DNA of 64,000 nucleotides from Pseudovirgaria hyperparasitica. Its lineage: Eukaryota. The DNA lies in the NCBI GenBank assembly GCA_010093815.1, contig ML996571.1; one strand, 5' to 3'. Position numbers and translations under genes: made by a program. Positions 18,828-55,871 of this stretch are shown here, piece by piece; the stretch's first letter is position 1, and every line of letters begins with the position of its first letter. Below the pieces are notes generated by a model. It worked only from the letters and a program-made list of their open reading frames with translations, was not told the DNA's origin and ran no database searches.

Positions 18828-19202
18828 GGTGGCTAGGAGGGGATGGGAGGGTTAGGGGCGGGTGGGTAGGATGGAAATGGGAAGGGAGGGGGGATGGTGG
18901 GAGAGGTGAACAGGGCATACGAAATGTATTTTGCGTAGGAGAGGGAGCAGGGGAGGATTGTATAAGTATTACAGTAGCATATTCGGGCCAGTCTGGTGTA
19001 GCGTAAGAATGGAATGAATATGCTTGAAGTACGAATTTTGAAAGACAAACCAAGGCACAGTAGATCATCATGTCCGTGATAAGTCTAGAATCATATAGAG
19101 ACTAGACGTGATGTACAGTCTACTAGGTGGAAGCTATAAGAAATAATATTATCATGTAGGTATTACCTAGATTCTAAGTAGCAAGAGTAGAGTTATACTG
19201 TT

Positions 19203-19800
19203 AGAGAGAAGAGATGAAAGTAGTTTCTTATCTTAATATAATTCTATTATAGAAGAGATATTAGACTAGATAGAGAATCTACCAGACTAGAGAGTATACA
19301 AATACTACTACTATGTATCTATTAAGTGATTCTATAAAAGTATAAAAATAATATTTTGATAGAGAGAAGAGACGATAGTAGTTCCTCTATTTAATAGAAG
19401 ACTATTATAACATAGAGATTAGAGTATAAGAGAAGTATAAATGTTTAAAGAAGTAAGTAATATCATTCCTAATTAGATATTAAGTGTTTTTTTAGTAGTA
19501 ATAGTATAGTAATCCTACTAGAGAGAAGAGACTATAGTAGTTTCTCTAATGAGTAGAAGGCTATTATAGTATAGAGATTAGGAGACTAGAGAAATTTAGT
19601 TATGTAGAGAAGTAAGACATTATATACTTTTCTATATATCTAGTGGATCTTGAAGTATGATTCATAGTATCTCTAATAAAGAGAAGAGACTATATTAGCT
19701 TCTTGGTTTCATAGACGTCTATTTTGCTATAGAGATAGGAAAATAAGAGAGTTTTATCTAGATAGAGAAGTAGAAGATTCTGTAGGAATCAAAGATATCT
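19203..19800. repeat. ~4 degenerate tandem units of ~159 bp, RIP-like AT-rich island
   Basis: Motif agagaagaga..tagt(a/t)..tct recurs at ~19203, 19361, 19520 and 19679. Confidence 0.75.
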
Positions 19801-29400: not shown

Positions 29401-32400
29401 ATGCAATTACATATTCAGTGGCTCATGCGCAACCAGAGTTCCTATCAATCAGTCCAACTTCAATTCTGCCTCTCTAGAATTGACTTAGTCTAGTTCAACT
29501 AAGGCCTCTTGCTAAGGGTTAGATCTTCAGTCTAATTTAATTCTAGGGCAGGATTAAGTTACTAATAGTTAAGTTAAACTAAAGTTATATATAGTATATA
29601 TATATATAGAGTAGTGTTTTTAGGTGTTAAGTTTAGGGAGCTACCTACTAAGGATAGTCCGTTAGCTAATAGTAACCTATACTAGTCTCTCTACGTCTAG
29701 CCTATTCTAGCTATTATTCTAAGCCTTATATTTTTAAAGTATTTACTATCTCGACTTATAATTATTACGTCTACTACTACGCGTTAACACTATTAATATA
29801 GCTTCTTAGCGCCTAGTTTACGCGCCTAAAGTATACTCTCGTAATATATTTAAATAGTAATATTCCTAGGTCGAGTATATATAGAGAATCGCGCGTCCTA
29901 GGAAGTCCTAGAATATATTACCTCTTAATAAAGATAATAAAGATAATAATAATAATATAACTACCCGTAGGCTAATACTACTATCTCTATCTAGCGCTAG
30001 CCCTATACTATACTAGCCTATACCTAAAGATCTATATAGCTACCTAGTATAAGAGAGAGAGATAATAGAGATAGGTAGTACTAGAGGAGATAAAGATAAT
30101 AAAGATTCCTAGAGTTTTATAGGCCTAGACATAGAGTCTTTATATAAGGGTGTTATATAGTCCCGCCTTCTAGGCTTTATAAAATCTATAGCACTACTTA
30201 AGCGCGTAAACGCGTTTAGCTAGATCTAGAAGTATAGTTTCCGTCTAGAGTAAATTAGTAATAGAGATAAGTACTAGTAGTATTAAGTCTACTATAAAGA
30301 GAAACGTATAGGAGGGAGATTTAAGGTAGCCTTAACTACTAACGCCGTAGACTATCTCTATAATATATACTAGTAGTACCTAAGTAGTAAGAGGAAGTGT
30401 AAGGAGAGTAATATACTAAAGATAATAGTTAAGAAGGCTAGGATAGATTAGACTACGGTAAATCTACTTATCTAGACCTTTCATCCTAATAGATTTAACT
30501 AACTACTAGTAAAGTAGGTTATACTTAACTTATAGTCTCTTTACGTTATCGAAAACCCTTATCTCCATAAAGCTATCTTAAGAGTAAACCTAGAGGTAGA
30601 AGCCTTAATATAGGAGAGTACGGATACCCTTTAAAGCTATATCTTAAATACCTATAGACGTGGCTTAGCACGACTTTATAAGGTCCTTAGTACTACTATC
30701 TTAAAGATTTATATTATGTTTAATAGCTGGAGTTCACGGAACTACTATCTATCTCTATAATTCTATATAGCGCACTTTATAAATAAGAAGGGTATCTTTA
30801 TTAATATCTTCTTAGAATTACCTAAGGTTAGAGGTAGCTATACTAGTAAAAACTTTAGAGATTTAACTCTCGTAGTACTTAAGAGGTATAGGATTAAGGA
30901 TAATGTAAGAATAGGGTTATTAGATAGTAGTGTAGTTAGATAGAATAATAGGGTGTATTCTATTATAGAACGAATTACTACCGAACCCTTTTAGTAGGAA
31001 TCTAAGAGTATATATATAAAGGGACGCTAATCTATCTAGCACGTAACTATTTACCGCCCTTCACGTTACCTCCTAACCCTATTAGCTAAGGTATATATAG
31101 GTTAGGTCCTACCTAAGGCTAAGTCCTAATAATTATTCCTTCCCTCTAGGAAGCTACCCTTAGCGACCTAGATTATTATCTATCTCTATATCCCTATCCT
31201 AAGTCTCGTAAGACCTTAGTTATTCTCTACGCTTCGTCTTAGATACTTACCGATATTCGCTAATCTAAGATTTATATAAGCGTTTTCCTAATAAACTAGA
31301 TTTTATCTATCTTAACTTCTTATATAGGTGAGATTACCTAATTAGACCTAGCGTATCACGTAATATGATTAGGTAAGCCCGGGTACTACCTATATTAAAA
31401 TCTTTTCTTAGAAATATTCCTTTCTTTAAAAAACTTCTTAACTCTTTATAGAGTTTTTTAGATTATTAGATATATTACCCGATCCTTATAGATATAGATT
31501 TATATAGATTTACTATAATTTAGTACGATTTACGTAATTTACTAATTTTTATACCGTCCTTAGCTAGTAATAACATAATTCGTAATAATCTATATAAATT
31601 AATAATAATCGTAATATGGTTTCCTAAAATCTTAATACTCTAAAGCAATCGGCGCGGAAATAGGCGCCTTTAAATAATCTCTATCTTATATACGTCACTA
31701 ATATGTCGAAAGCCATTAATCTACCCCGACCTAGGCTAGGCTCTAATAATCTAGCTATATATTATTATAGTTATCGCTTTCCGTTATATATTACTCACGG
31801 TAGTACTAAATCTATAATATACGGTACTTACATAACTAAGAAGCGTTATTACTTATAGGTATTTAAGTAAGTTTAAAGAACTTTATATAGATTTACTTAT
31901 ATTAGTATAGATTACTACTAGGCCTCTAGTAACCCCTACTAATAAGGAGCGTAGTACTACCGATTATAACGCCTTAGAGAAGGCTTTCTATAAGCTATAT
32001 ATCTAAGGTAAGGGTTACGCCTAGGAGTACGATTCTAATAAGATCCGTAAGGATTTATCGGAATCTACTATAGCTATTATTACCACAATTACTAGATAAT
32101 ATCATTTTTCTTAAATCATTATAGATTCTTACTAATATATATTAATCTCTATAATAGTACTAAAATCTCTACCACTTCGGACTTCTTTCTATATACTAGC
32201 GATATTAAAATTCCTAGAAAAGGTTCTAGTAAAAAGGCTAAGGTTCCTTCCTCGCGCGTGCTAAAGAGCCGTAAATTTAGGGAAGATAGCTCTAATCTAG
32301 AAGTTTCTATACTAAAGGTATATAGTTCTATACCGATTATTAAATCTTTTCGCTAATTTATATAATTCTTAGCGTGCCCACGCCGGTCCGTCCCTCTCTA

Positions 32401-35250
32401 TCCCGGGTTCTACCGCTCCGTAGGTTTCTATAGAGAAGTTTATAGCTATAAGGCGCGCTATATAGAATTTATAGTATTGGAACGAAAGGCTAGAGACTTA
32501 TGTTATAAAGCTCTATACTATACTAAATAAGAACTAGCGGAAGGAATTAGATGTAACTGTTAGGGCTAACACTAGGATGGACTCAACTAGAACACTATGG
32601 TCTAGTACGGTCCGTGATAGGTGGACCCAGGGTAAGCTAGCTAGAATAAGCGAGACCACTATATAAGTAGGCCGTATATACTTAATTCCTACTCTTTAGG
32701 AATTAACCTTATTAAGAGAGTAGACTACCCTTTTAAATATATTCCCGAATCCTCCTATGACCTATTAGACTACTATCCTATATCTATAATCCTTATATTT
32801 TAATTCCTCTTTATATAGCACGACGGTAGTTTATAGAAATAGCTCTAACTACTCGTTATAACACCCGTCGCACCGCCTCTTATAGTAGACCTTCTCCTAA
32901 CCTAAACGAGGAGAATAGTCTACCTATAACTACCCCTACTAATAACTATATCTTATAGGCTATCGCACTAATAACTCGTACGATATTCCGTGTAACTATA
33001 GAAGATATTATAGAATATAAGGATAGAGTCTATTATACTCTATCTTAGTCTAGTTCGAACTATACTAGACCTAACCTTAACACAAGGCTAGACCTTATTA
33101 ATATTAATAAGTTAATCCGTTAGAGTCGCCTAATATTAACTATACCTTATAACGACGTGTATACTAGACTACACGAAGAGAGGTAATAATAGGTTTAACT
33201 TAAGTAATAACTATATAAACTCGACGAAGCTTAAGAACGTACTACGAGACTTAAAGCTATATTACGCGCTTTAGTTCTAGTAATGACTAATCTATATTTA
33301 TATAGACCTATACTAACTAAAACGATCTATCCTAGTCTACTACTATCCTAATTACTCTAACCTAAGAAACTACCTTACTTCAATAGTAAAAGTAGAAAGA
33401 GTTTCCACGTATAGACTTACTAATATAGCCGATTCTTCTATCTATTTACGAACGATAGCGATAAAATTAGATTCGCCTAGAACTACCTTAATCTAATGCC
33501 TTTAGAACGTTAGATGGTATACTAAATTAAATATCCTAAGGATGCCTATAACTAGGACACGTTCACCAAATTTCTCCTCTAATATTTTAGCGATAGAGCT
33601 AAACGACGCGACTAGGCCTAGGGCTATATCTTTAAGACTCGATAACGAGATAATTAGTTACCGTTATAACTTCTTAAATACCTTCGGCCCCTCTAGAGAG
33701 AAGCCGAAGAAGATTATATAATTTAATAGTACGACGACTTTAAACGGTCCCTCGCCCTAAATATAAAGGACCGTCTTAATCTTATAATAATAATCTCTAT
33801 AGACCTCTAAGCTCTTATAAACCTCGCGGAGCGATACTAGTATATAATAAATAATTAATACCGCGCTAGTGCACGACTATCCCTAATGATCTAATCTAAT
33901 ATAAAATCGTCTAACTAAAACCGATTTAGTAATAGATCTCGCGGGACGTTATAAGGCTACTACTATACCTTAAATTTAAAACCACGCGGATCGTATCGTG
34001 GATCTCCCTACTAATTAATATATTAAGATATAAGGACCGACTCGTATAAACGACCTAAAGTCACTTACTACACCTATAGTAGAATAGACTATATAGCACC
34101 TAAGTGCCGTTTAGGGAAGCTACCGAGTGCTAATATAACTAACTAACTAGTTATATACTATAAGTGCTAGTAGCTAGGACACATCGCGCCTAACTACCTA
34201 GTATAGAATATAAAAAACTAATAGCCTACGAGAAACCCTCGCGACTTATAGATATAACTATAATAGAGGGGTAATCCGCTAAATAGTATATTAAACTATA
34301 GGCTAGACCCATTAAGGTCCCTCGTGGATAATATTAGACTATAATACTCGATAGTAGATCGGCTACTAACGTCATGTCGACCTAACGAGCACGAGAACTT
34401 AACGCCGATATCCAAGCTCTAATAGATACTATGTTCCATGGTATCGACGGTCCTATTAAGTTATACGGCACCTATACTATTAAATACGGCATCTAGAATA
34501 GCGGAGGGAAATAGAAACTCTACTACTTAACCTTCATCGTGGTAGATAGTCTCTTTAATATGATTCTAGGTATACCGTAGCTTAAGAAATATAATCTAAA
34601 ACTAGACTTCCTTAAGAAGATAGCTAGCTAGCGTATAAACCCACCTTAATGGGAACTAGTATAGCTTATCGACGACGAATAATTCTAGAAAGATTATAAG
34701 AAGGCGATCTCTACTATCTACGTGCTCTTACTTACGTAAAATAGCGAGCTTAGTATTAAAGTGGACGAAAACCTACTATATTAGTATAAAATATACTAAT
34801 ATATCGTGTTAGCGATCGATTTCTCCGAACTACCTTAATACTAATCTACTAACCTTACTATTAATCTTAAAGACGGCTAGTAACCTCTATATAGACCTAT
34901 CTACCCTCTTTTAGAACCTAAGTTATAAGCCCTTCGAGAATATATCGAAAAGAACCTTACGCGAGGATAGATTAGGCCTAGTATATCCCTAGCCGGAGCT
35001 CTAATCCTCTTTATAAAGAAGAAGGATAGGAGCCTCCGTCTATATATCGACTACTATAGCCTAAATAATATCACGCAAAAGAATCGTTATCTACTACCTC
35101 TTATCTCCGAGTCTATCGATAGACTAGAACGCGTAAAGATCTTTACTAAGCTCGATCTATATAATATCTACTATCGCCTTCGTATTAAGGAAGGCGACGA
35201 ATAGAAAACGGCTTTTAGAACCCGTTATAGATACTTTAAGTATACCGTGG

Positions 35251-35390
35251 TATAAGAAGGCGGGCTCCACGTACCAACCAACTACACTAAAAGGACCGAA
35301 TCTTGAAGCTACTACTTTAAGGGTAGAGCACACTGCTTATATACGACTGCTATACACATGTATAATCAACTGGCAGGCACGTGCCTAACA
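35251..35390. mobile_element. 140-bp solo LTR of a third family inserted in the C1 RT
   Basis: T(A)TAAG...CCTAACA ends and 5-bp TSD CGTGG (35246-35250 / 35391-35395). Absent from C2, and accounts for the 145-bp length difference between C1 (8155) and C2 (8010). Confidence 0.88.
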
Positions 35391-38300
35391 CGTGGTCCCT
35401 TTTAGACTAACTAACGCGCTAGGTACCTTCTAAGCGTACATTAATAACGCGCTAGTAGGCCTACTTAACACGACATGTATCGTGTACCTAGATAATATCC
35501 TTATCTTCTTAGATAATAAGGAGGAGTATATCTAGCACGTACGTGTAGTCCTAGATAGGCTAGAAAAGTATAAGCTATATATTAAGCTATCCAAATGCGA
35601 GTTCCATTAGGACTATATTAACTTTCTTAGCTTCGTTATTACTAATTAAGGTATAACCATAGAGAGAGATAGAGTTACTACTATTATAGACTGGCCTAAA
35701 CTAAAATCCGTTCGAGATATACGTGTCTTTATTAGCTTTACTAACTACTACCGAAAATTTATTAAACACTTCTCCCGTTTAGCCGCACCACTTAATACGC
35801 GCACTACTACTACCGACTCGTCTATTACGGTCCATGGTAGATAGAAACAGCGTAATATTAAATTATAATCTATTAAATTAACTAAGGTCGAAAGAACATC
35901 CTTCGAGAAGATTAAAGAAGTATTTATAACCGCCCTATTACTAGTATACTTCGATCTAACCAAACCTATTTACGTCGAAACTAATATATTAGGATTTATA
36001 ATCTCGGGTATACTCTCCTAGCCTAGACTAATAGAGTCTAAAAAGGTCTAATAGTATCTAGTTACGTTCTTCTCGCGTAAGATAGCCGACGTTAAGACTA
36101 GATATACTATTTATAACTAAGAGCTACTAGTAATAGTAGAGTCGTTTAAGTAGTGGCGATATTATCTTAAAGGTACCATATATAATATTAAGTTACTAAT
36201 TAATTACTATAACTTAAAGGGGTTTATAAGCACGATAGTTTTAAATCGTCGATAGGTTCGATAGGCTAAGTAGCTTATAAATTTCTACTTTATAATCTAC
36301 TATCGATCTAGAAGTATAAACCTAGCTAATAGAATATTAAGAAGACCTAACTATAAAGAAGGCGCCTAGGATTATAGTAGCCATAGGGTCCTAGAGTAGC
36401 TATAGGCCTAACTCTTAAGGACGAGGTTAGATAATAAGTTATCTAATAATTAGCGAGATGCTAACGCCGATGCCAGTAATTAAATTTATAAGACTAAAGC
36501 CGGTAACTAAAGACGCGGTACCGAAGTCTCTAGCGAGCCATTTATCGGCGCTGTTAGGGAGGGTAATAGTATCCAGCGTGTATATTAAGTAGACCTTGCC
36601 TAGTTAATTATAGATCTATAAAAGATAGACCCGATAGTTTTAAAGTTACGTAAAATATAGTAAGATAGGTTATTATAGACCGAAGTAGACTATAAGTGGA
36701 CCTTCGTGGACGGCTTACTCTACTATAATAGAAAGTACTATATACCGATAGGTAACGCACGATTTACCGTAGTTAGCCGATACCATAACGCTAACCTAGT
36801 AGAATATTTCGGGTATATACGCACCCTAAGCTCGATTTATTAGTACTATTTTTAGGAAGATATATCTAAGTACGTCGAAGAATAGATAGCTACTTATCCG
36901 ATTTATTAAAGAATAAAGGTACCTAGGCATAAGCCATATCGGAACTTATAGCCTCTACTAGTCCCCCTCTTTATATAGAAAGATATTACTATAGATTTTA
37001 TAGTTAACTTACCTCTAAGCGAGATACTTAGAATAAGTTATAATTTAATTCTTATTATCGTGGATAGACTTATAAAGATATCTAGGTACATCCCTATATA
37101 GAAGACAATCACATTAAAAGAACTAGCATAAGTATTCTAGAATAAGATTATTAAGGTCCATAGTATACTAAAAAGGATCATTACGAACCGAGGGAGTATA
37201 TTCACGTCTAAATTCTAGACGTTATTCTACAAAATAGCCAGTATAAATAGAAACATATTAATAGCATTCCATCTATAAACAGATAGTTAGATAGAGCGAT
37301 AGAACCAAACACTCGAGGCCTACCTTCATACATTCTATAATTTCGAATAAGACAACTAGGCCTCTCTACTAAGTATAGTAGAATTCGCGTATAATAATAG
37401 TCGTTATAGTATAATAGGTGTTACGCCCTTCTAGGCGAACCTAGGACGTAGTCTAAGGATAGGTTTCGAACCTTATACGGTCTAGTTCGACCGAACGATA
37501 GATGTTAACGTCTATACGTAGGAACTAGCGATTAAAATCTTTAAAACCGTACATAACTATCGCGCAATAATCCAGCAAGCGAATAAGTCGTATATAAAGT
37601 ACTATAATAGATTAGTTAAAGATTAAGCGTACGAGGAGGGAGACGAAGTCCTCCTTAATATCTATAATATATAAATATCGCGAGTAAATAAAAAGCTCGA
37701 TTATAAAATGGCTGGTCCCTTCCGAATTAAACGTCGCATTAGTATAAGAGCCTATAAGCTCGACCTAGGAAACGATATAAAAGTCTATAACGTATTCCAC
37801 GTCTTATTACTTAAAAGGTTTCGACCTAACGTGTATAAACGCACGAACGTGTAATTACACTCTATTATACTCTAAGATAGACTAGACGTGTACGAAGTGG
37901 ACTATATTATTAAATATAGGCTTAATAAGAACGGTGTCTAAAAGTATTAAATCCGTTAGAAGAACTACACCGAGGATAAGAACACCTAGGAACCTATAGT
38001 ATATATCTTAAGTACCGCGATAGCTATATATAAATAGAGGTTATAGGATAATACGTTACTACCGTAAACCTAGCGCCGTCGGGGCCGTCGTAAAAAGAAG
38101 AAGGATACCGTGGAGAACGAAGTGTCGAATTACGAATCCCAAACGCACACTAGGAAAACTCTATAAGGCAGCCCTATAATTTAAGCGATACACGGTTACT
38201 AAACGCGAAGAAAACGTAAATAACCATTATAGGCACGCGACGCGATATATTATAATAGAATAACATAGAGAAGTCTAGAATAGACTAATATAGACTATTA

Positions 38301-38681
38301 TACACGAGAAGAACATAGGACTAAGAAACTAAAAAGGTACTCTACTACGGAATTAAACTCGTTATATATAATATAAAAGGTTAGAGTACCCGAACTAATA
38401 ACTACTAGGCTACTAGTTCGGGTGCTCTAATATAATTTAGAGAGATAAACTAATTTATATACGATGCCTATACTTAAGTAACTTAAAGGAAATTAGAACC
38501 TAAAATTTAATAGTTATAGAATAAATAAGAACGTATATAATATTATTAAGTTAAGAATTAAATTACTAGAAAACTAGTAGATGGGTATCTAAACGGTCTA
38601 AAAAGGACCAAAACGGATAGAAACTAGGTAGATAGAGCTAATACACACCACATAGAAACCCTAGTAAACAGAGCTATAGAG

Positions 38682-39985
38682 CTACTCCTCTATCTTATTA
38701 TTACTCTTAGAGCGTAGTAAACGAACTAACCGAGTAATAGAGCGACGGAGGTTAGAGACTTATTCTCTAGAGTAACCACGCGCTCGGTTAGAGCCTAGTA
38801 AGACGATGACTAAGCGCTAGAGCGGAGCGACTAGACCTAAAGTTAGCTAACGCGGTCTAGAATAATCTAGAATAGAATATATACCCTCTTATAAGGTAAC
38901 TTAGAAGGAGAACTAGTAGATCTCTTACGAGACCCGTTAGTAGTATAAGGTAGGCGGGAAGAAATAGCACGAATCTCTTCTACGGCCTTAGTAGCTAAAA
39001 CCGACTCCCTAGAATAGGTAGCCTAAGCGCTAGGAATCTCGCAGCGACTAAAAATTATAAGCTAAGGTTAATAATAATTAACGGTTTCTAAACTTACACT
39101 TTAATAACCTCTAGAAAGAGCTTATAGCGCTCCCTAAACTCCCTACGTATAGAAGCTAGATAACTACTAGAACCGCCGAGAGTCTCACGGACGCAAAGAT
39201 CGTTATATATATCTTATATATAAATAGGAACCTAAAAACGCATTAGTATAGACGACTTTAGATTACCCTAGACTAAAATAGCCTAATAGACTTACCTAAA
39301 GATAAACTTTACCGAGGACGGTATAGCGGCGGTAGCGGGTAGGGAGCTTAAAGATTAGGCGTATAGGCCTATCGCGGTTAGTAGAGTAGTAGCTAATACT
39401 AGAGTTAGAGCGGAAGAGATATTTAGAGCTAGTAGCGTGAGCCTTAATATACTTAAAGTATATTAAACCGTAGTTTACCGTTTTTCTATAGCGTAAACCG
39501 CGACTACGTTTAGTATCTTCAGCGACCTAGGCCTTATTATTACTAGGGCTAGGTTTAGAGCGAATATTAAGGTCCTAAAAGAATCTAGAGCGACTAAGTT
39601 AGTCTATATTAGACCGAAAAGAGGAACGGCGTTTAGAGCGAGGCGGCGAAGGCGTGAACTCTCGATTATCGTCTATAACGAGATCTTCTTTATTCTCTAA
39701 AGGAGATAGAGTAGATAGGCGGCGCGAGTAGGTATAGATAGGCTTTATAGCCACCTCTTCCGTAACACTAGTACTAGGATTACCTAGATTAGAGCGACTA
39801 GTGGCCACGTTAGTAGTAATAGTAGTAGTAGCCTTAGCTACCTTCTTCTCTAACTTAGAGCGCGCCTTTATACTACTATAATAAGTGGATTTTTTAGCCG
39901 GTATGGCCGGGGTAGAGGTAATCTCTTTAGAGCGAGTCTTATAAGAGAAGGAGATAGACTTAGAAATAGGACTAGTATTAGATAT
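38682..39985 (-). pseudogene. Antisense spliced accessory gene of C1 (~380 aa); exons 39985-39296, 39231-39098, 39047-38885, 38836-38682
   Basis: GTAAGT/GTAAGT/GTATAT donors and TAG acceptors, with CTAAT/CTAAC branch points in introns 1 and 3. De-RIP CFKC-x18-C-x17-CRRC-x6-CLQ|VP. C-terminal heptads. Exon 4 has a 1-nt deletion relative to C2. Confidence 0.75.
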
Positions 39986-41418
39986 CTATATATATACGTT
40001 AGCTAGAGATCTAAGAGTAGAATACTCGTTTAGCCTTAAAGGCGATTAAAGAAGCTAAATTAGTAACCATAATAACGCGAATAGATTATATAGGACCAGC
40101 TCTAATAAAAATAGACTACTCTAGACCCGAATAGATCTAAACTAAAGGAGATAGTATACGAATTAACGACTTACCTTAAGAGTAAGATAGATATACTAGA
40201 GAAGAAAATTCAGAATAAGAGAACTAAATATAAGCTTAGTTAATATAGCGGTTATATAACCCGCGGAGCTATCTCTAAGGTAGTAGCTATAAAGTAAGGG
40301 ATAAGCGCGTATATAAATAAAAGTAAACTAGAGCTTAAGTTTACTAATATAAAGACTATTAATAACGTTATATAGATTTAATTAGATGCGCGTATAAATA
40401 TAACGCTTATAGAATTATAGATTTATATATAGCTAAGTACTTCGGGGCGAAGCATAAAAAGAAGAAGAATATTATTAGGGCTAACACTAGGATAGACTTA
40501 ACTAGAATACTATAGTCTAGTACGGTCCGTAATAGGTGGACCTAGGGTAAGCCAGCTAGAATAAGCGAGACCACTATATAAGTAGGCCGTATATACTTAA
40601 TTCCTACTCTTTAGGAATCAACCTTATTAAGAGAGTAGACTACCCTTTTAAATATATTCCCGAATCCTCCTATGACCTGTTAGACTACTATCCTACGTCT
40701 ATAATCCTTATAGTAACTATCGCGGTAATTAGTACTTCTACTCCTACTCCGACTTAATTAGTTTAGATCTATACTAATTAGTACTAATATATCTCTTTTA
40801 TCTAGCGTTTTTAGTTTTTTAGTTTTAATTTTAAAGCGATCTTACTTCTTCTAGATAGATTAGTACGAGTTTATATAGATCTATATAGATCTTTATATTT
40901 TCTTTTAGCTTTCTTAATTTTATCTTTCTTTAATAATAACTTCTTTAATCTCTTTAGTAATCTATACCGATCTATACCAATCAGCACCGATTTTCGATGT
41001 CCATTTCTCTTAGTAAATCATTTTTCTAAGTCTCTTTTTTAGTTAAATTTTTTAAAGTTCTAAGTTCGAACTTTCTAAGGAAGTTCCTTAATTCCTTAGA
41101 ATATTTTAAAGATCTATATCTCTTTTACCTTCTTCCTTTTAGGTAGCCGTCCTCGGTACCAAACTATACTAAAAAACGTTGAATTACCGTACTTTAGTAT
41201 AATTCTCTACGATTCCACGGCTTCCTTTACTAATCGCTACTTATATACTAATATCGCTACTTTACTAATGTTTATTATAGGTTCCCAAGTATCTTTATTA
41301 GAATTATATTCTTTCTAATAAATTTTATATAGCTACGTGCTATCTTCGGCGTGTTACTAGCTAAGTATCTACTTAACTTCGTAGATATCTATACCTTCTT
41401 ACATAACTACTTTATATA

Positions 41419-44400
41419 ATAATAATAATAATATTGTATAACTAGGTAGAGTAGTACTCTACAGGCCTATGCCTCCTCTAGTCTAAGCCACTATATAAGA
41501 AGAAACCCCATAGGGAAAAACTTCCTTATATCTATAACTATATCTCGTTAAACCTCTATTTCGTCTTAAGTATATAGCTATAGAGTACGCCTATTAGCCT
41601 ATAGCCTATATTACCGTTATTTTACCCTTAGGTAGCACGTGTAGGTGCGGAGGTTATTAGTTAAGGGCTGCCCTTAACTAATAATCGGGGTTCTCCCGGG
41701 GTTCTTCCGGTATATATTAGGTTACTACCGGCGTATACCGGGTCTCTTCCGGCATATATTTCTAGGTCCACTAGTACTAGAGGAGTAGTAGATGTATAAG
41801 CATCCATTAGGAGACGTCCTTAGGATACTTATTAAGCTATCGTACGATATCTAAAGTCTTTATAACATAGATAAGCTATTACCGTTATATATGGAGGTTA
41901 GGGTATATAGCTAGATAGTAGTGTATTATACCTCTCCGGCCGTACGCCTTATACCATAGGGAGGTATTAGGAACGCCTCTCTTATAGATATAGTATAGAA
42001 GTCCCATGGCGCCCGTTCGGGCTTAGATAAGTATAGATGCTTAGGCTTTCGTTAGCCCTTTATATATCTATTTACTCGGTTCCTTCTATGGCCCTCGAAT
42101 CTACTCTAGGTACCTATCCTACTAGGAGGTCTAGTGGGTACGGAGTGCCTCTTTCTACTTATCTTAAGTCCACGACCGTATATTTTTCACGAGTTCTAGA
42201 AGGCTCTACCGGTCTAGGAGAGCGTCCGGGTTATCTCGGACTTCTTATACTACTTAGCTAGAGTCGGCTTCTATTAAGCACCTATACCATATTCGATTCC
42301 GGCCTATATATAGGAGTGCGCGGTAATATATACTAATTCGTGCTCGTAGCGCGGCGAAAGTATGTTCTGCGTTTCCTATACGTTCCTATGCTTATTATTT
42401 AGTGAAGTATACCACCCTCTATATCTAGTAGAAGTTATGTATACTTATAACGTCTGTCTCGCGTCGTAGTAGCACCATGTTAGTAGCTTTATATACGCCT
42501 AATATAAGACGGAGTATACGGTTCTATATAGATTCGAGCTTCATTCGCCTAGTCTATATAAGGGCCGTATACTAGTACTCGTGTCCGTACATGAAGGCGG
42601 GTCGTGCTATAGATATATATAGCTGGCGTGCCTTATCCCGGGCGGTTCCCTATATAGAGGCTATAATCCGTCGTATAGCGGCTTCTACCCGGAGGGCCCT
42701 AGAGACGGCGTATACCACTTATAGTCCCTATTTAAGCTTACTATCTAGTATGACTCCGAGCGCGCGCATGCTTTATACTAGTAGTTTATTAAATGCGTCG
42801 ATTCGGGGGCGTCGTTCGCCTTCCCTAGTTACCTATTTCCCTTAACGATTAATAAAGTGCATGAGTTAGTATTTCTCCGGGGCGAACTTTACTCCGTGGC
42901 GTTTTACCTACTAGAGATACCTCTCGTGGTTCTATTCTAGTCGTCTACACGTTCTATTAGTATTATTATCGATGGCTAGGAGGTATATATTATCGGCGTA
43001 TCCGACTACCTCTATATACTTTATTCCTTAAAGAAGGTCTACTATAAAGAAGAGGAATAGGATCGGAGAGATGGTGCTCCCTTATAGGATGCCGCATGCC
43101 GTCTCTTTATATTCGCTCTGGTACCTAGGGATATATATCTAAGTTATTCTTCCTGTAAGGAATGACTATATAAAGCGTGTAATCCATTCTAGTATTCGTC
43201 TTATCCGGAGGTTATAAATAAGTCTTATATGGTTTACCTTGTTAAACGCTCCGGCCATATCGAGGGAGAGGAGCGATACTACCCGTCCCTATTTCTATAC
43301 GGCCTAGACGACTTCGATAATATATTAGATAGCTATTATTAGGGAGCTATCTACCTTTACCTTCTAGTTCGGAGGGAGGAGATTATATTCCTATACCGCG
43401 GTACTTATCTTCTTCGCTATCGTAGCCTCTAGTATCTTATCTAGGTAGGAGAGAAGGGCGATTAGTCTCCATCCCTTTAGGGAGTTAGGGCTCTTTCCTA
43501 GCTTCGGGAGCATGATAGTATAGGCGACTTAGAAGCTCTAGGGGTGGTACCCCTACGTGACGCATACTTAGAATATATAAGTAATAAGTGGTAGGGTCGC
43601 TTTTATAGTGCTTTTTAGGCATCGATTTAGAATTCCATCTAGTCCGGGTGCTTTATCATTTAGGAGTGTCTTAATAATATTAAGTATGTCCTCCTCCGTA
43701 ACTTCTTTAGGGATATCTACCGCGTATAGATATTCGGCGCCGTGAACGTCTAATAGGTCTACTAGTTCCGGGAGAGGGAACATGGCCTCCCATAGGGCCT
43801 TAGTTTTCTTAAGGCCCGTGGAGTATGTTCTCCCCTAATATATTAGGGGAGGTATAAGTGGCGGGGGTGTCGGAGTGTCTACGCCCTTGGCCCATTTCGC
43901 CATGCGCTATAGCCCTATTACGTGTCGTGTCTATTAACTAGTAATTATACGCTACTATTTACGCCTTTCGTTACGGAGGACTTTATCGCGTTATCGTATC
44001 GCTTCCTTCTATTCTTCCCACGACTCGGGTATTCTCGTACGGTATACGCGTCTATATAGCCTTCGGGCGTCTTATCTACTTTCCTATACTTAAGGAATCC
44101 CCTTTACTTCCGGGGGCCGGTATATTTAGTATAGTACATGTTTATTTCTCGCATTCTAGTATATTTATAGGAGTATCTATACGGCCTAGTCTATGGCTAG
44201 GTCGTTAGATACATCGACTATAGAGGGATCTAGAATCGCCGATTCCAGGTCCTTCAGGTACTTTTCCTAGTCGGTATCCTTCTATATCCATCGTCCCCGT
44301 TATTTATTCGGGGTATACACGTTTATTATAGTTTCTATATATTCGTGGTCGGAATCCGTCTATACCTAGCCTAGGCGGTAGTATTAGATCCGGTGACTAA

Positions 44401-46700
44401 TATGCTCCGTGGTAAAGGTAAGGTCAAGCGTAGACCCGTCTTTATCCTATTTATGTTTTTTCTATATAACTTATTCTATAGGTGTAAGTAGGTATAGGAA
44501 GTCGTGGTAGTAGGTGCGTAGTTCCCTTACTCTAAGTTCTTCCCTAACCACGGCTAGGCCTCCCTACCATCGGTAGTAGAGGTTAAAGTCTCCTAGGAGG
44601 ATGTGTTACTCTAGTTCCGTGGTACCCTCGAGCATCTCGTCTAGTGTAAGTACACGTTATTAGTTATATATGTTATATATATATAGGGGGCCTATATCTA
44701 TTTATAGGTATAGTGTTATCCTAAGGTTATCGCGCTCGGTATATAACCATAATAAGAGTAGTATTAACCTATAAATATGGAAGAGGACTCGTCTTTCTAG
44801 TCCTAGAGGGTATATAGTATAGTATCCGGGGTGTGTGGTTGGTTTGCTCGTCTAGTAGTATTTATAGGGTTCCTAGATGGCGAGTATTATGGCCCCGGTC
44901 TCTTCGAGGAGCGTCGCCTGGTTCTCTCTTTTATATTATATGTTTACCTATATAATTCGGAGTATATTCTAGTCCCTCATTAGGTACTAGGGAGTATATA
45001 TACCTATATACTTATTCCTTAGAGGCGCGACTGTCCTCGCGCGGCAGCGGCTTTAACTATGCCTTTTAGTCATCCCATCGTCTTCGGAATAGTCTACTAT
45101 CCCGCCTAACTACCTTCCGGAGGGGAGGTTAGGGGTGTTATAAAGGAAGGGCTCGTGGTAGGTGTTATATTCTATAACTATCTCGCGTCTCTCGCTTTTA
45201 TCGTGCGAATGTATTCTATAACCTATTTGCGTTTTATGCACGTTGACGACCACGACGGGTGTTTCCCATCGCAGTTTAAACACTATACTATATCCCTATT
45301 TCTTAGTCCGTCTCCTCGCGGTTCATAAGGGCACTCCTAGATAGCGTGGTCCCCACGGTACTATCCGCACTTAGTCTTCTATAAGTACCTTTGTATAGTA
45401 TGTCCATACCCTTAACAGTTAAAGCACTATATTATTACCTATGCCCTATCCTATGGCTCGGCCATAAGGAGCTCTTCTTCTATTAGGAATCCCTCCTATA
45501 TAATGCGTTATACGAGGGCGGGGTCTCGGAGCTCTATAATTATAGTAGAGTGTTTTTTCGCCGTCGTCTTAATCGCCTATAGGTTCTTCTACCACGCTTT
45601 CACGATCTTAATCCCTAGGTATTTTCGCGTATTAGATTGTTCTATACGCGTAATATCCTCCGCTCCGATAGCCTATCCCCGCATAGGTACTACGTATACT
45701 ATAATCGGGTATATAGCTACCCTAATAGACGCGCTGGGGAAGATACTACCTATCGCGTTCGGATCTCGTGAGATGTTTTACTATATAGTATTCGTTATAG
45801 TAGTAAGTACTACCCTACCTAGCGTAACTTTAGTAGCCACGACGCTTAACTACATTCCTTTCTATTCGTTAATCTTATTTATAATTTCCTTTAGGGATGC
45901 CCGTTAGACCTATGCCAGCGTGTCCTTATCCTAGATTATGATACGTATACTATATACTCTATCTATGGTCCTAGTAGTCCTTAGTACGGTGGCTCCGGGT
46001 GTTACTATAATCTAAGCCCACGTGTTAGGGCGCTTACCTTAGAATAGCTCTTCCTAGATTCTCCGTAGGCTAGCTTCCATTCGGTCGAGCCTACTACTAG
46101 GTTCCTCTTATGGCGACTTCCTTTCTTCCTCCGTAATTCCTCTTAGGTTCCGGATAAGGTCCCGGAATATATAAAGAAGGGTCTTCTTTCCCTCCTCGGC
46201 GTCCCTCTCTATACATATTACCTAGTATTTAATTTTATCTAGGAGGGTCTCCCCTCTCGGGGTCCCCTCGGTCTAGGTTATCTATAGCGCTTCGCACCCT
46301 TAGTTAGTTCCTATATTTTAGATAGGTGTCTAGCTATCCACATTAATATCGCTATATAGCCGTTTCTACTATACTAGTAGGGGCATATCCGGCGTATGCC
46401 GGGGTATTATAATGCCTAAGGCCGCCATGGTTATTAGTTAAGGGTAGCCCTTAACTAATAAAAGGGGGTCGGCGTGTCGGCGTTTATTAGATATGGTCTA
46501 TACTCGTGTTATTAAAGAGTCTTCGAGCGTATATATATAGTATCTCTATACGTCCGTATCGTCGTGTATTATATACTATACGTACGCACGTGTGTCGGAG
46601 GTTGTTATACTCGGTATACTCTATCGTTTAATGTATATAAATCGCTGTTTTACCCCGAATTGACCAGTTTAGTCCGTTGGGGTGTAAGAAGTTTTTTTTA
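41419..46700 (-). mobile_element. Tad/CgT1-like LINE (RIP-inactivated): ORF1 ~46428-44980, ORF2 (EN-RT) ~44980-41790
   Basis: TSD AACTACTTTATATA (41405-41418 / 46701-46714; the boundary blends with the tail). (ATT)n 3' tail. De-RIP ORF1 QCFNCQGYGH (~45400-45430). RT KAPGLDGI.NRCLK in ORF 43568-43783. Confidence 0.9.
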
Positions 46701-47221: not shown

Positions 47222-50200
47222 TGTCAGGGCTGACACTAGGATAGACTCAACTAGAATACTATGGTCTAGTACGGTCCGTGACAGGTAGACCTAGGGTAAG
47301 TTAGCTAGAATAAGCGAGACTACTATATAAGTAGGCCGTATATACTTGATTTCTACTCTTTAGAAATTAACCTCGTTAGGAGAGTAGACTACCCTTTTAA
47401 ATATATTCCCGAATCCTCCTATAACCTATTAGACTACTATCCTACGTCTATAATTCTTATATTTTAATTCCTCTTTATATAGCACGACGGTAGTTTATAG
47501 AAATGGCTCTAACTACTCGTTATAATACTCGTGGTACCGCCTCTTATAGTAGACCTTCTCCTAACCTAAACGAGGAGAATAGTCTACCTATAACTACCCC
47601 TACTAATAACTATACCTTATAGGCTATCGCACTAATAACTCGTACGATATTCCGTGTAACTATAGAAGATATTATAGAACACGAGGATAGAGTCTATTAT
47701 ACTCTATCTTGGTCTAGTTCGAACTATATTAGACCTAACCTTAATATAAGGCTAGACCTTATTAATGTTAACGAGTTAATCCGTTAGAATCGCCTAACGT
47801 TAACCACACCTTATAATAATATATATACTAGACTACACGAAGAGAGGTAATGATAGGTTTAACTTAAGTAATAACTACACGAACTCGACAAAGCTTAAGA
47901 ACGCACTACGAGACTTAAAGCTATATTACACGCTTTAGTTCTAGTAACGACTAATCTATATTTATATAGACCTATACTAACTAAAACGATCTATCCTAGT
48001 CTACTACTATCCTAATTACCCCGATCTAAGAAACTATCTTACTTCGATGGTAAAAGTAGAAAGAGTTTCCACGTATAGGCTTACTAATATAGCTAATTCT
48101 TCTATCTATTCACGAACGATAGCGATAAAATTAGATTCGCCTAGAACTACCTCGACCCGACGCCTTTAGAACGTTAGATGGTATACTAAATCGAACATCC
48201 TAAGGATGCCTATAACTAGGACACGTTCACCGAATTTCTCCTCTAATATTTTAGCGATAGGGCTAAACGACGCGACTAGGCCTAGGGCTATATCTTCGAG
48301 ACTTGATAACGAGATAATTAGTTACCGTTATAACTTCTTAAATACCTTTAGCCCCTCTAGAGAGAAGCCGAAGAAGATTATATAATTCGATAGTACGACG
48401 ACTTTAAACGGTCCCTTACCCTAAATATAAAGGACTATCTCGACCTTATAACGATAATCTCTATAGATCTCTAAGCTCTTATAAACCTCGTAGAGCGATA
48501 CTAGCGTATAATAAATAATTAACGCCGCGCTAGTATACGACTATCCCTAATAATCTAATCTAATGTAAAATCGTCTAACTAAAACCGATTTAGTAATAGA
48601 TCTCGCGGGACGTTATAAGGCTACTACCACGTCTCGAATTCAAAACCACACGGATCGTATCGTGGATCTCCCTACTAATCGATATATTAAGATATAAGGA
48701 CCGACTCGCATAAATAACCTAAAGTCACTTACTATACCTATAGTAGAATAGACTATATAGCACCTAAGTACCGTTCGGGGAAGCTACTAAGTGCTAATAT
48801 AACTAACTAACTAGTCATATACTATAAGTACTAGTAGCTAGGATACATCGCGCCTAACTACCTAGCATAGAATATAAAAAACTAATAGTCTATAAGAAAC
48901 CCTCGCGACTTATAGGCGCGACTATAATAGAGGGGTAATCCGTTAAATAGTATATCGAACTATAGGCTAGACCTATCGAGGTCTCTCGTGGATAACATTA
49001 GACCGTAATACTTAATAGCGGTTTAGCTACTAACGTTATATTAACTTAATAAGTATAAGAACTTAACGTCGACATTCAAGTACTAATAGATGCCACCTTC
49101 TATAGTATCGATAGTCCTATTAAATCATAGGGTACCTATACTATTAAATATAGCATCTAGGACAGCGGGGGGAAGTGGAAACCCTACTACTTAACCTTTA
49201 TCGTGGTAGATAGTCCCTTTAATATGATCCTCGGTATACTATAGCTCGAAAAATATAACCCGAAACTAGACTTCATCTAGAAAACAGCTGGCTAGCGTAT
49301 ATACCTACTATAATAGAACCTAGTATAGCTAGTTAACGACGAATAATTCTAGAAGGACTACGAAAAGGTAATCTCCGCTATCTACGTTCTCTTACTTACT
49401 TAAAATAGAGAGCTTAGTATTAAAGTAGATGAAAACCTACTATATTAGTATAAAATATACTAATATATCGCGTTAGTGATTAACTCGTCCGAATTACCTT
49501 AATACTAACCTACTAACCTTACTATTAACCTCGAAGACGGTTAATAACCCCTATACGGACCTATCTACCCTCTATTAGAACCCGAGCTATAGGTCCTCCG
49601 AGAATACATCGAAAAGAACCTTATATAAGGATAGATTAGGCCTAGTATATCCCTAGCCGGAGCTCTAATCCTCTTTATAAAGAAGAAGGATAGGAGTCTC
49701 TATCTATATATCGACTACCGTAGCCTAAATAATATCACGCGAAAGAATCGTTACCTACTATCTCTTATCTCCGAGTCTATTAATAGACTAGGGCGCGCGA
49801 AGATCTTTACTAAGCTCGATCTATGTAACGCCTACTACCGCCTACGTATTAAGAAGGGCGATAAGTAGAAAACGGCGTTTAGGACCCGTTATAGATACTT
49901 CGAGTATATAGTAGTCCCTTATAGACTAACTAACGCGCTAGGAACCTTCTAAGCGTACATTAATAACGCGCTAGTAGGCCTACTTGACACGACGTGCATC
50001 GTATACCTTAATAACATCCTTATCTTCTCTAATAATAAAGAAGAATACATCTAGCACGTACGCGCAGTCCTAGATAGGCTAGAAAAATATAAGCTATATA
50101 TTAAGCTATCTAAATACGAGTTCCACTAGGACCACGTTAACTTCCTTAGCTTTATTATTACTAATTAAGGTATAACCATAGAAAGGGATAGGGTCGCTAC

Positions 50201-53200
50201 TATTATAGACTGGCCTGAACTAAAATCAGTTCGAGATATACGTGTCTTTATTAGATTCGCCAATTACTACCGAAAATTCGTTAAGTACTTCTCCCGTTTA
50301 GCCGCACTACTTAATACGCGTACTACTACTACCGACTCGTCTATTACGGTCCGTGGTAGATAGAAACAGCGTAATATTAAATTATAACCTATTAAATTAA
50401 CTAAGGTCGAAAGAACATCCTTTAAGAAAATTAAAGAGGCATTTATAACTACTCTATTACTAGTGTACTTCGACCTAACTAAACCTATCCGCGTTAAAAC
50501 CGACGCGTTAGAATTTATAATCTTAGGCATTCTCTCCTAGCCTAGACTAACTAAGTCTAAAAAGGTCTAATGGTATCTAGTTACGTTCTTCTCACGTAAA
50601 ATAGTCGATATTAAGACTAGATATACTATCTATGACTAAGAGCTACTAGTAATAGTAGAGTCGTTTAAATAGTAGCGATATTATCTTAAAGGTACCATGT
50701 ATAACGTCGAGTTACTAACTAATTACTATAACTTAAAGGGGTTTATAAGCACGACGGTTTTAAACCGTCGATAGGTCTAATAGGCTAAGTAGCTTACGAA
50801 CTTTCACTTTATAATCTACTATTAACCTAGAAGTATAAACCTAGCTAATAGGATATTAAGAAGACCTAACTATAAAGAAGGCGCCTAGAATTATAGTAGC
50901 TATAGGGTCCTAGAGTAGCTATAGACCCAACTCTTAAGGACGAGGTTGGATTTTAAGTTATTAGGTGATTAGCGAGATACTAACGTCGATACTAGTAATT
51001 AAATCTCTAAGACCGAAGCCGGTAACTAAAGACGCGGTACTAAAGTCCCTAGTAGGCCGTTTATTAGCGCTATCGAGAAGGGCGATAATGCCTAGCATAA
51101 ATATCTAATTAACCTCGCCTAGTTAATCATAGATCTATAGAAGATAGACCCGATAGTTTTAAAGTTATATAAAATATAGTAAGATAAGTTATTACGGACT
51201 AAAGTAGACTATAAGTAGACCTTCATAGACGGCTTACTTTACTATAATAGAAAGTACTATATACCGACGGGTAACGCGCGATTTAACGTAGTTAGCCGAT
51301 ACTATAACGCTAACCTAGTAGGACACTTTAGGTATATACGTACCCTAAGCTTAATTCGTTAGTACTATTTTTAGAAAGATATACCTAAGTACATTAAAGA
51401 ATAGATAGCTACTTATCCGATTTATTAAAGAACGAAGGCCCCTAGGCATAAGCCATATAGGAATTTATAGCCTCTTTCAGCCCCCCTCTTTATATAGGAA
51501 GACGTTACTATAGACTTTATAGTTAACTTACCTCTAAGCGAGATGCTTAGAATAAGTTATAATTCTATTCTTATTATCGTAGATAGACTTATAAAGATAT
51601 CTAGGTATATCCTAGTGTGGAAGACGATTATATCTAAAGAACTAGCGTAGGTGTTCTAGAACGAGATTATTAAGGTCCATAGTATACTAAAAAGGATCGT
51701 TACGGACCGAGGAAGTACCTTCACGTCTAAATTCTAGACGTTATTCTACGAAATAGTAAGTATAAATAGAAACATGTCTATAGTATTTTATCCTTAGACG
51801 GATAGCTAGATAGAGCGATAGAACTAGACGCTTAAGGCCTACCTACGCGCATTCTATAATTTTAAGTAGGATAACTAGGCCTCCCTACTAAGCATAGTAG
51901 AGTTCGTATATAATAATAGTCGTTATAGTACGATAGGTATTATACCTTTCTAGGCGAACCTCGGACGCAGTCTAAGGATAGGTTTTAAGCCTTAGACGGT
52001 CTAATTTAATCGAATAACAGACGTGAACGTCCACGCTTAGAAATTAGCGATTAAAATCTTCGAAACCGCACGCAACTATCGCGCTATAATCTAATAAGTA
52101 AACGACTCGTATATAAAGTACTATAATAGGTTAGCTAAGGATTAGACGTACGAGGAGGGCGACGAGGTTCTTCTTAATATTCATAATATATAAACGTCGC
52201 GAGTAAATAAGAAGCTCGATTATAAAATGGCTGGTCCCTTCTAAATTAAACGTCGTATCGGTATAAGAGTCTACGAGCTCGACTTAGGAAGCGACATAAG
52301 AATCTATAACGTGTTCCACGTCTTACTACTCGAAAGATTTCGATCTAACATGTATGGCCGCACGAACGTGTAGTTACACTCTATTATACTCTAAGATAGA
52401 CTAGACGTGTTCGAAGTGGACCATATTATCGAACATAGAATTAATAAAGACGGTGTTTAGAAATATAGAATCCGTTAGAAGGACTACACTAAGGATGAGA
52501 ATACCTGGGAACTAGTAGTATATATCTTAAGTTCTATAATGGCTGCGTATAAGCAAAAGATATAGAATAGCGTATTATTAATATAAGTATAGCGACGTTA
52601 CGGTTATTATAAAAAGAAGAAGGATACCATAGAGAACGAAGTGTCGAATCACGAATCCCAAACGTATACTAGGAAAACTCTATAAGGTAGCCCTATAATT
52701 CAAGCGATATACGGTTACTAAACGCGAAGAAAACGTAAATAACCGTTATAGGCACGCGACGCGATATATTATAATAGAATAACATAGAGAAGTCTAGAAT
52801 GGACTAACATGGACCATTATACATGAGAAGAATATGGGACTAAGAAACTAAAAAGGTACCCTACTACGGAATTAAACTCGTGATATATAATATAAAAGGT
52901 TAGAGTACCCGAACTAATGACCACTAGGCCACTGGTTCGGGTGCTCTAATATAATTTAGAGAGATAAACTAATTTATATACGATGCCTACACTTAAGTAA
53001 CTTAAAGGAAATTAGAACCTAAAATTTAATAGTTATAGAATAAATAAGAACGTATATAATATTATTAAGTTAAGAATTAAATTACTAGAAAACTAGTAGA
53101 CGGGTATCTAAACGGTCTAAAAAGGACCAAAACGGATAGAAACTAGGTAGATAGAGCCAACACACACTATATAAAAACCCTAGCAAACAGAGCCATAGAG

Positions 53201-55231: not shown

Positions 55232-55871
55232 CTTATAGTTATAATATACGCGTAAATACGCCTTAACTATCTAATTCTACCGCTCCGTCTATCTATCTAT
55301 TTATAGATAGAACGTAGTACTAAGTTTCCACTTAATTCCTAGTATATAGTAGAAATCCTTCTAAAATTTAGACGTTATCTACGGACCTCTATCCGAAACT
55401 ATACCATTCGGTATACTATAGAGCCGGACTACGTCACGGAGTAGTATATCTATAAGATCCGGTGCTTAGATTATCTTTCTTATAGGGATATAGTATAATA
55501 TCTTCGTAAATCTATCTAGAACTATAAGTAAACTATTATAAATATATCTAGAATACTTACTTAGGGGTAGATCTATAATGAAATCTATCGATAATTCCTT
55601 CTATGCCTCCTTTAGCATAGGTAATAGCCTTAATTCACTATATGGTAAGTGTCTATATACTTTTATATACTAGTAAACGTTATACGTTTTTACGTAGTCT
55701 TTTATATATTTATAAAGACCCGGCTAGTCATACGTCCTTCGGATTAAATTAACCGTCCTTATAACGCTGAAGTACTCTACTAACGCGTAATCGTGCTATT
55801 CCCTTAAAATATTAATTTATAAGCCGCCTTCCGGCACGTAGAGTCGGCCTTAGAAGTAGATCGCGTCTAAT

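Follow-up and report, generated by a model that had tools for sequence, protein, structure and literature searches.

A stretch of 64,000 nucleotides from Pseudovirgaria hyperparasitica (contig ML996571.1 of assembly GCA_010093815.1; the whole stretch is referred to here as the window) holds two families of chromodomain-bearing gypsy retrotransposons, B and C, and raises the question of whether both carried the same extra gene, encoded antisense to gag-pol. The original prediction answered that family B has an antisense gene with an intron architecture identical to that of family C and that the two represent an old, vertically inherited third gene of a chromovirus clade. We found an antisense frame in the same place in both families, good splice signals in family C, and part of the same layout in family B. 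On this evidence, we put at about even the chance that both families had a small antisense gene downstream of pol and ahead of the polypurine tract, of the kind exemplified by brtn in other fungal elements, and that it was inherited with a homologous 3′ spacer. The reading is plausible, but its basis is layout, not sequence, expression, or structure. The idea that fungal chromoviruses carry a third gene on the antisense strand has a precedent in brtn and is not new.

Two chromovirus families with a frame antisense to pol

The frames lie in a nest of retroelements, which we resolved by self-comparison and junction sequences. Element B is the host, and inside it are two copies of C and a non-long terminal repeat (non-LTR) element of the long interspersed nuclear element (LINE) type. 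The main parts of B and C are as follows.

30904-59547, minus strand: family B, a complete chromovirus with the target-site duplication GATAA on both sides
30904-31131, minus strand: B 3′ LTR, 228 bp, with GATAA at 30899-30903
59320-59547, minus strand: B 5′ LTR, 228 bp, with GATAA at 59548-59552
31136-31147, minus strand: B polypurine tract, which reads as pyrimidines on the plus strand and adjoins the 3′ LTR on its inner side
55240-59319, minus strand: B gag-protease-reverse transcriptase (RT)-RNase H-integrase, from Pfam matches
41257-41390, minus strand: B chromodomain (Pfam Chromo, E 0.0038, 17.6 bits against a cut-off of 25.1), with the pol end just downstream
1-1021, minus strand: second B copy, partial and inverted, with an LTR at 791-1020 and 790 nt of 3′ spacer, running off the window
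32558-40712, plus strand: C copy 1, nested in B, target-site duplication GTAAC
32558-32797 and 40473-40712: LTRs of C copy 1, 240 bp, from self-comparison and junctions
47222-55234, plus strand: C copy 2, nested in the B integrase, target-site duplication CTTAT

Element B has the LTRs, 5-bp target duplication, polypurine tract, protease-RT-RNase H-integrase order, and C-terminal chromodomain of a chromovirus. Its pol gave minus-strand Pfam matches to RVT_1 (1.4e-14), RT_RNaseH_2 (1.5e-12), Integrase_H2C2 (3.3e-06), and SH3_Tf2-1 (1.2e-10); the rve match fell below threshold (23 against 32.6 bits), and the low scores of both rve and Chromo are expected after repeat-induced point mutation (RIP). 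The two B LTRs are 92.6% identical (self-BLAST of 30902-31131 against 59318-59547), and these two, with the third, inverted LTR of the second copy, bear out the predicted 228-bp repeat. A run of 225 N lies at 55872-56096, within the RNase H-integrase region, and a 174-nt unit occurs twice in tandem at 60971-61318 (90% alike), just outside the B 5′ LTR.

Family C is an 8.1-kb chromovirus whose copies 1 and 2 are 87 to 89% alike. Translation placed RT, integrase, and chromodomain on the plus strand of copy 1, with the chromodomain at about 37900-38000 and the polypurine tract at 40456-40469, so the predicted opposite orientation of the two families, B pol on the minus strand and C pol on the plus strand, was confirmed. 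By sequence, B and C are related chromoviruses: their RT regions are 66 to 70% identical at the nucleotide level. Their LTRs had been called unrelated, and the LTR bodies indeed have no detectable similarity (z 1.1), but a TGTTAGG/TATTAGG end is common to both. The interval 31564-40757, given originally as a single unit, is a portion of the B 3′ spacer plus the entire nested C copy 1.

The nest makes up an AT-rich block at about 29.5 to 62 kb of the window (GC content 0.27 to 0.44) that is degraded by RIP: CpA/TpG stands at 0.13 to 0.38 of expectation and TpA at 1.6 to 1.9, and dinucleotide values are normal in the gene-rich part of the window. Every family B and C copy within the window is dead. 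In both families, an antisense frame occupies the spacer that separates pol from the polypurine tract or 3′ LTR, on the strand opposite gag-pol, which for B is the position and plus strand that had been predicted; in B, the nested C copy separates the chromodomain at the end of pol from the frame. The frame is found in both C copies and both B copies, and the variation between copies is all due to RIP and silent on selection. We regard the B and C genes as likely further examples of the antisense extra open reading frames (ORFs) of LTR retrotransposons.

A probable spliced antisense gene in family C

The candidate C gene has the following parts.

38682-39985, minus strand: antisense gene of C copy 1, 11 stops in 379 codons against 5.5 to 18.6% in other frames
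39985-39296, 39231-39098 (134 nt), 39047-38885 (163 nt), and 38836-38682, minus strand: putative exons of copy 1
39295-39232, minus strand: putative intron 1, GTAAGT donor, 64 nt, phase 0
39097-39048, minus strand: putative intron 2, GTAAGT donor, 50 nt, phase 2
38884-38837, minus strand: putative intron 3, GTATAT donor, branch GCTAAC, 48 nt, phase 0
53201-54504, minus strand: antisense gene of C copy 2, 10 stops in 380 codons
54504-53815, 53750-53617, 53567-53405, and 53356-53201, minus strand: putative exons of copy 2
53814-53751, 53616-53568 (donor mutated to ATAAGT), and 53404-53357, minus strand: putative introns of copy 2

Exon 1 of the C gene is open for 128 codons in copy 1 and 136 in copy 2, and the frame runs on to about 230 codons with three or four stops. 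It ends in R-C/Y-R-R-Y-x6-Y-L-stop, directly followed by GTAAGT. The predicted architecture, in which this junction is followed by a phase-2 intron, a 163-nt exon, and a phase-0 GTATAT intron, was present as described, and the three introns coincide with changes of frame in phases 0, 2, and 0. We looked for introns with a GTRNGT-type GT donor, a CTRAY-like branch, a YAG acceptor, a length of 45 to 75 nt, and a restored frame. All three C introns have good donors, and two of the three pass the strict filter for donor, branch, and acceptor together. Across the 32.5-kb block, 11 plus-strand and 13 minus-strand donors pass this filter, and 6 of the 13 fall in the two C spacers. The last exon has 52 codons and a heptad-like tail; that of copy 1 carries a 1-nt deletion relative to copy 2.

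These frames and signals bear on the possibility that neither spacer is protein-coding, and that both are long 3′ untranslated regions with a conserved cis block and perhaps a regulatory non-coding antisense RNA, their frames being due to chance or composition. The background stop rate in the RIP-degraded DNA is 9 to 10% per codon, and at that rate we estimate that a frame of 128 to 136 codons would be expected about 0.01 times in the block. Moreover, the C frame ends exactly at TAG and then GTAAGT, and two further consensus introns restore it. Both points argue against the non-coding explanation, and we consider that family C very probably carried a spliced antisense gene.

A possible counterpart in family B

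The B model frame, 31616-32537 on the plus strand, runs antisense to B pol in the stretch from the polypurine tract to the first C insertion and divides as follows.

31616-31858, plus strand: putative exon 1, ATG at 31616, ending Y-G-T-Y-x6-Y-L-stop, 3 stops in 81 codons
31859-31910, plus strand: putative intron 1, GTATTT...TATAG, 52 nt, phase 0
31867-31921, plus strand: alternative intron 1, GTAAGT donor, 55 nt, phase 2, also in frame
31911-32095, plus strand: putative exon 2, 185 nt, 2 stops in 61 codons
32096-32157, plus strand: putative intron 2, 62 nt, phase 2, starting with AT, with a TACTAAT branch-like site and an AATAG acceptor
32158-32317, plus strand: putative exon 3, 160 nt, 0 stops in 53 codons
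32318-32372, plus strand: putative intron 3, GTATAT...CGCTAAT...CTTAG, 55 nt, phase 0
32373-32537, plus strand: putative exon 4, with its stop TAG at 32535-32537, 20 nt short of the nested C insertion

Splicing as predicted and reading from the ATG at 31616 gives a model of 250 codons, 9 of them stops; the other five frames have 7.6 to 13.8% stops. Two of its predicted parts have parallels in C: the stop-free 160-nt exon 3, matching the 163-nt exon, and the phase-0 GTATAT intron at 32318-32372 with its CTTAG end. Intron 3 is the sole B intron with sound signals and passes the donor, branch, and acceptor filter. The model frame also scored best of six (9.8 bits) in a purine/pyrimidine codon-usage comparison, a result that we discounted as a product of stop avoidance and strand composition bias.

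Further B copies gave some support for the frame. The second copy in the window, which had been given as 1-360 and in fact extends over 1-1021, is 92% complementary to 30901-31921, and 81 of its 82 differences are transitions; as predicted, it restored several codons. Family B is very abundant in the source organism: 5421 and 1629 contigs from two DNA runs were placed on 31132-32557, and they differed only by transitions, often as paired CG↔TA changes, with no indels. Two sites lend the B frame some support: an in-frame TAA stop at 31625 reads CGA across about 45% of family depth, and position 31646, CAA in this copy, reads TAA across about 98%. Among the 40 variant places listed, of 102 in these contigs, there was no A>G change at 32096, the start of putative intron 2, or at the putative Cys codons.

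Several features link the two families. The motif [Y/C/H]x2[Y/C/H]x6[Y/C/H]-L-stop occurred five times in about 65,000 codons, namely in B, in both C copies, and at two chance sites. Exon-3-like units, defined as AG, then 1 nt plus 51 to 56 codons with no more than one stop, then a donor, were found in B, in both C copies, and at three other places in 65 kb of strand. When exon 4 was anchored at its stop, 14 of 52 purine/pyrimidine codon classes were identical between B and C (p 0.0054 by shuffling), a likeness matched by 0.40% of 54,108 real windows (p ~0.004, uncorrected). In B and C alike, the motif comes first, then the exon-3-like unit, then the GTATAT intron, and last the likeness anchored at the stop. 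Spacing is similar as well, at 459 against 411 nt from the motif to the intron-3 donor and 219 against 203 nt from that donor to the stop, and the distance between the LTR edge and the ORF start is 484 nt in B and 487 nt in C.

Evidence weighing against a shared gene

A number of results count against the view that B carried the same gene as C, and most concern the B introns. The predicted phase-2 intron at 32096-32157 does not hold: it starts with AT, and no correctly phased GT was found within 32000-32157. GTAAGG at 32008 or 32047 was considered as its donor and rejected, as the phase fits no acceptor. Because RIP erased the same donor G in C copy 2, which has ATAAGT where copy 1 retains GTAAGT, loss of the B donor to RIP is possible. 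However, the context of 32096 (G before G) is the least favoured, and CpC accounts for 14 of 81 differences between B copies, which weakens that explanation. Intron 1 had been placed at the same codon as in C, and the motif followed by GT at 31859 is indeed there, but GTATTT is a weak donor and a perfect GTAAGT lies 8 nt downstream at 31867, with an acceptor at 31921 and in frame. This alternative is in phase 2 and would undo the same-codon claim. Neither version passes the intron filter, and the GTATTT version has no branch match. Exon 3 reads through intron 3 for about 147 codons with two stops. Exon 4 is present as described, but its model frame contains more stops (4 among 55 codons) than the exon-3 read-through frame (1 among 54). 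An identical intron architecture was thus an overstatement: part of the layout is common to B and C, and one of the three B introns is sound.

The predicted Cys skeleton of B, PCLVC...CLQ, was not upheld either. There are no Cys codons in exon 1 of either B copy, and the proposed Cys residues are TAY codons. Through RIP, stops have arisen from Gln and Trp codons and from some Arg codons, Ile has replaced Met, and Tyr has replaced Cys, His, and some Arg. As TAY can also arise from Arg CGY, each such codon may have been Tyr, Cys, His, or Arg, and any single restoration of the protein is arbitrary. An Arg origin was seen directly in B exon 2, where TAT at 31965-31967 is CGY in about 60 to 65% of family depth. 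In C exon 2, the TGC of one copy is CGC in the other; C has one TGC, in one copy, at one putative Cys site, and its C-R-R-C is embedded in a run of CGC codons that could equally have been an Arg run. CpA sites are saturated by RIP in all copies, so comparison between copies cannot restore them; the CpG context accounts for 50 of the 81 differences between B copies and 370 of the 931 between C copies (838 of the 931 are transitions). A Cys-rich zinc-binding module would need Cys or His codons at its ligand positions, which these counts do not bear out, and there was no Pfam match. The zinc-finger reading is unsupported, and the proposed Cys residues may be Arg.

Direct comparison of the two genes detected no similarity. 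A tblastn search with B frames found no match in the C gene, and the best-case protein alignment after reversal of RIP scored 75.5 against a null of 76.0 ± 10.8. A RIP-invariant purine/pyrimidine codon alignment was equalled by 18 of 200 shuffles, and its best local codon-class match is not colinear with the exon pairing that had been proposed. In gapped tests of single exons, p ranged from 0.03 to 0.94, and in gene-body nucleotide tests 53 to 730 of about 850 control windows reached or exceeded the observed score. The exon 4 likeness is the sole positive among about 14 anchored tests. Tyr-class positions overlap at 6 of 14 and 16 (hypergeometric 0.11), and a one-codon shift gives equal overlap. 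For C itself, a purine/pyrimidine coding score of exon 1 favours the complementary strand, at 22.5 against 7.1 bits, probably because of strand composition. The RIP-invariant test has little power, as a control comparison of B with C showed: z was 22.9 in RT, 12.7 over the chromodomain, and 5.2 in the protease region, but gag reached 1.5 and the antisense region 1.4. Since gag is missed likewise, the lack of B-C similarity is no evidence against homology at this distance.

These results raise the alternative that only C has a real antisense gene and that the B model over-reads a RIP-scrambled spacer. TAG, GTA, and TAY are so common in such DNA that a gene model can be pieced together from open frames, GT..AG pairs, and Tyr motifs, and frame f2 of B has 6.1% stops over its whole 1426 nt, which points to an effect of composition. 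The longest open frame in B has 78 codons, none like that of C, and two of its three introns are without sound signals; no B-C protein similarity is detectable, and the parallels have individual p values of about 0.004 to 0.07 and were noticed post hoc. Set against this, the B and C features stand in the same order at similar spacing, and the flanks are homologous on both sides. We find it somewhat doubtful that the gene was confined to C, and we lean slightly toward a degraded counterpart of the C antisense gene in family B. Whether the two genes share descent and at least the third intron is, in our estimate, evenly balanced.

A conserved block adjoining the polypurine tract

The best conserved part of the spacer was found with an alignment limited to purines and pyrimidines.

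31154-31565 (B), 40058-40464 (C copy 1), and 54575-54981 (C copy 2): B-C homologous block

In this transition-blind alignment, 295 of 414 columns of the block of about 410 nt agree (score 89.5), with indels of 1 to 3 nt. The score was reached by 0 of 930 real control windows, by 0, 0, 0, and 1 of 500 local shuffles, and by 1 of 6424 windows of unrelated metagenome loci, so that with one unrelated window equalling it the signal is moderate. Stop density at 31132-31615 is 5.6 to 13.7% across plus-strand frames and 8 to 14% across minus-strand frames. The block may be the promoter or leader of the antisense gene or a cis element of the sense strand.

Conservation is best here and not in the putative coding part, and this bears on the non-coding explanation: B-C homology can be demonstrated in the spacer for this block only, which looks non-coding, and not for the gene bodies. 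At the same time, homologous DNA flanks the spacer on both sides, which favours common descent of the part in between. The simplest reading is that the whole 3′ spacer, gene included, came from a common ancestor, and capture of a host gene is not needed. Independent captures of host genes by B and C, with a coincidental common layout, would account for the scant sequence similarity and for first exons of 243 and 690 nt. However, the genes lie in the same place, on the same strand, and at the same distance from the LTR (484 and 487 nt) between homologous stretches of DNA, and tblastn and protein collections revealed no host paralogue; we consider such captures very improbable. The original idea of an old, vertically inherited third gene thus retains its place, strand, partial layout, and homologous flanks, and lacks detectable protein similarity and, for the most part, sound B introns.

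Searches for homologues and transcripts

No homologue of the antisense products was found in collections of 5.8 and 1.84 billion proteins, and no Pfam family matched nine exon translations, the best hit being an irrelevant holin (E 0.21). Both results would fit non-coding spacers, but the queries are RIP-mutated, so blank searches say little; given the open frame and splice signals of C, we consider the non-coding explanation unlikely. In a word-indexed protein search, C exon 1 gave 369 candidates, none at E ≤ 0.01, and B exon 1 gave 21 candidates among longer proteins, none of which was accepted. A HMMER scan of the 1.84 billion proteins with the Tyr/Cys-rich stretch of both C copies returned two tandem-repeat proteins, which we rejected as spurious. 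A PDB sequence search and an Rfam search of the whole window gave no matches. In the ESM Atlas, the best score was 0.86, with recognition below the usual level, and a DUF3716 cluster scored 0.75, a lead only.

Four sequencing runs were found, of which two contain the stretch, and there was no RNA run among them. The contigs that these two DNA runs placed on B gave no joints.

A metagenome scan with an integrase-chromodomain alignment recovered 80 loci of 25 to 40% identity, none of which had the motif followed by GT. Among them, tblastn with 12 exon peptides gave one match (E 0.67), and clustering of 157 downstream ORFs from 41 loci returned only neighbouring pol pieces and low-complexity frames. 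One locus alone of the 80, L065, has an antisense C-x2-C-x37-C-x2-C frame behind pol (L065:1419-1775, minus strand). This is a short GC-rich contig with a distantly related gypsy integrase; the region is of low complexity and open in several frames, and the frame had no Pfam family and no homologues. Viral contigs gave 174 pattern matches, none of them related.

Relation to known antisense genes of retroelements

The fungal gene brtn was reportedly described by Zhao et al. in 2011 (Virology 417:248). Passages in PMC7264820, PMC8365987, and PMC4227169 place it in the Boty-like elements of Botrytis and Sclerotinia, on the antisense strand after pol and before the 3′ LTR. As far as those passages go, the frames of B and C resemble it in being an extra gene in the pol-3′ LTR interval, on the opposite strand, of a fungal chromodomain-bearing gypsy element. 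The likeness is one of layout; the LTRs here are 228 and 240 bp, and the copies here are dead through RIP. Plant gypsy elements offer a parallel: in Grande, RIRE2, Retand, and PvRetro13, the pol-3′ LTR interval holds antisense extra ORFs, which a passage of PMC7264820 describes as of unknown function and retained in most copies of each family. These ORFs have the same position and orientation as the B and C frames, but their hosts are plants and their lineages mostly not chromoviruses, and no sequence relation is expected.

A spliced antisense gene expressed from the 3′ end is also known from a vertebrate retrovirus, in the HBZ gene of human T-cell leukemia virus type 1 (HTLV-1), which has its promoter in the 3′ LTR and encodes a basic protein with a coiled-coil or leucine-zipper C-terminus. 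Its likeness to the B and C candidates is an analogy only. In the literature we found no fungal antisense gene beyond brtn, and the main text of PMC3248453 does not contain the word "antisense."

Other features of the window

The LINE lies within B, between the integrase SH3 domain and the chromodomain.

41500-46700 (approximate limits), minus strand: LINE (non-LTR) with matches to RVT_1 (2.9e-18) and Exo_endo_phos_2 (6.4e-06, 26.5 bits, below the cut-off of 27.4)

It is less RIP-mutated than the surrounding elements (GC content 0.41 to 0.44). Outside the nest, a tandem array at 19189-19784 has about four units with a period of 158 to 159 nt that are 61 to 74% alike, and it sits in a short AT-rich island (GC content 0.32) with gene-like regions on either side. 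An inverted repeat in the part of normal GC content (4592-4713 and 4966-5087) has arms of 122 nt that are 95% complementary and 252 nt apart, and 1808-2015 is weakly similar to one arm.

A possible third gene of ascomycete chromoviruses

If B and C carried such a gene, an internal promoter in the conserved block of about 410 nt might drive an antisense transcript, from which the host would splice three short introns. Being antisense to the genomic RNA, these introns would never be spliced there; they would survive reverse transcription and be copied with the element. The predicted product would have about 250 amino acids in B and about 380 in C, and would be basic and rich in Ser, Thr, Lys, and Arg, with many Tyr/Cys/His/Arg-class codons in the stretch immediately before intron 1 and a heptad-like C-terminus. 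Our best guess is a nuclear, nucleic-acid-binding, self-associating factor that would act in trans on the expression or replication of its own element.

More broadly, a spliced antisense gene for a basic protein with a coiled-coil tail could be the ancestral third gene of an ascomycete chromovirus clade that includes brtn, with the block as its promoter and an exon-intron skeleton that has outlasted recognisable sequence similarity; we offer this as a tentative proposal, possible rather than probable. Were it true, HBZ and other antisense genes of retroviruses would have an equivalent in fungi. Even the narrower reading, of a brtn-like gene in both families, would extend the fungal antisense case from brtn alone to other chromovirus families and would mean that a retroelement can carry an intron-bearing antisense gene over the long term. 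It would also give a handle on the role of the accessory gene, which might, for example, regulate the element or affect how it interacts with host silencing and RIP.

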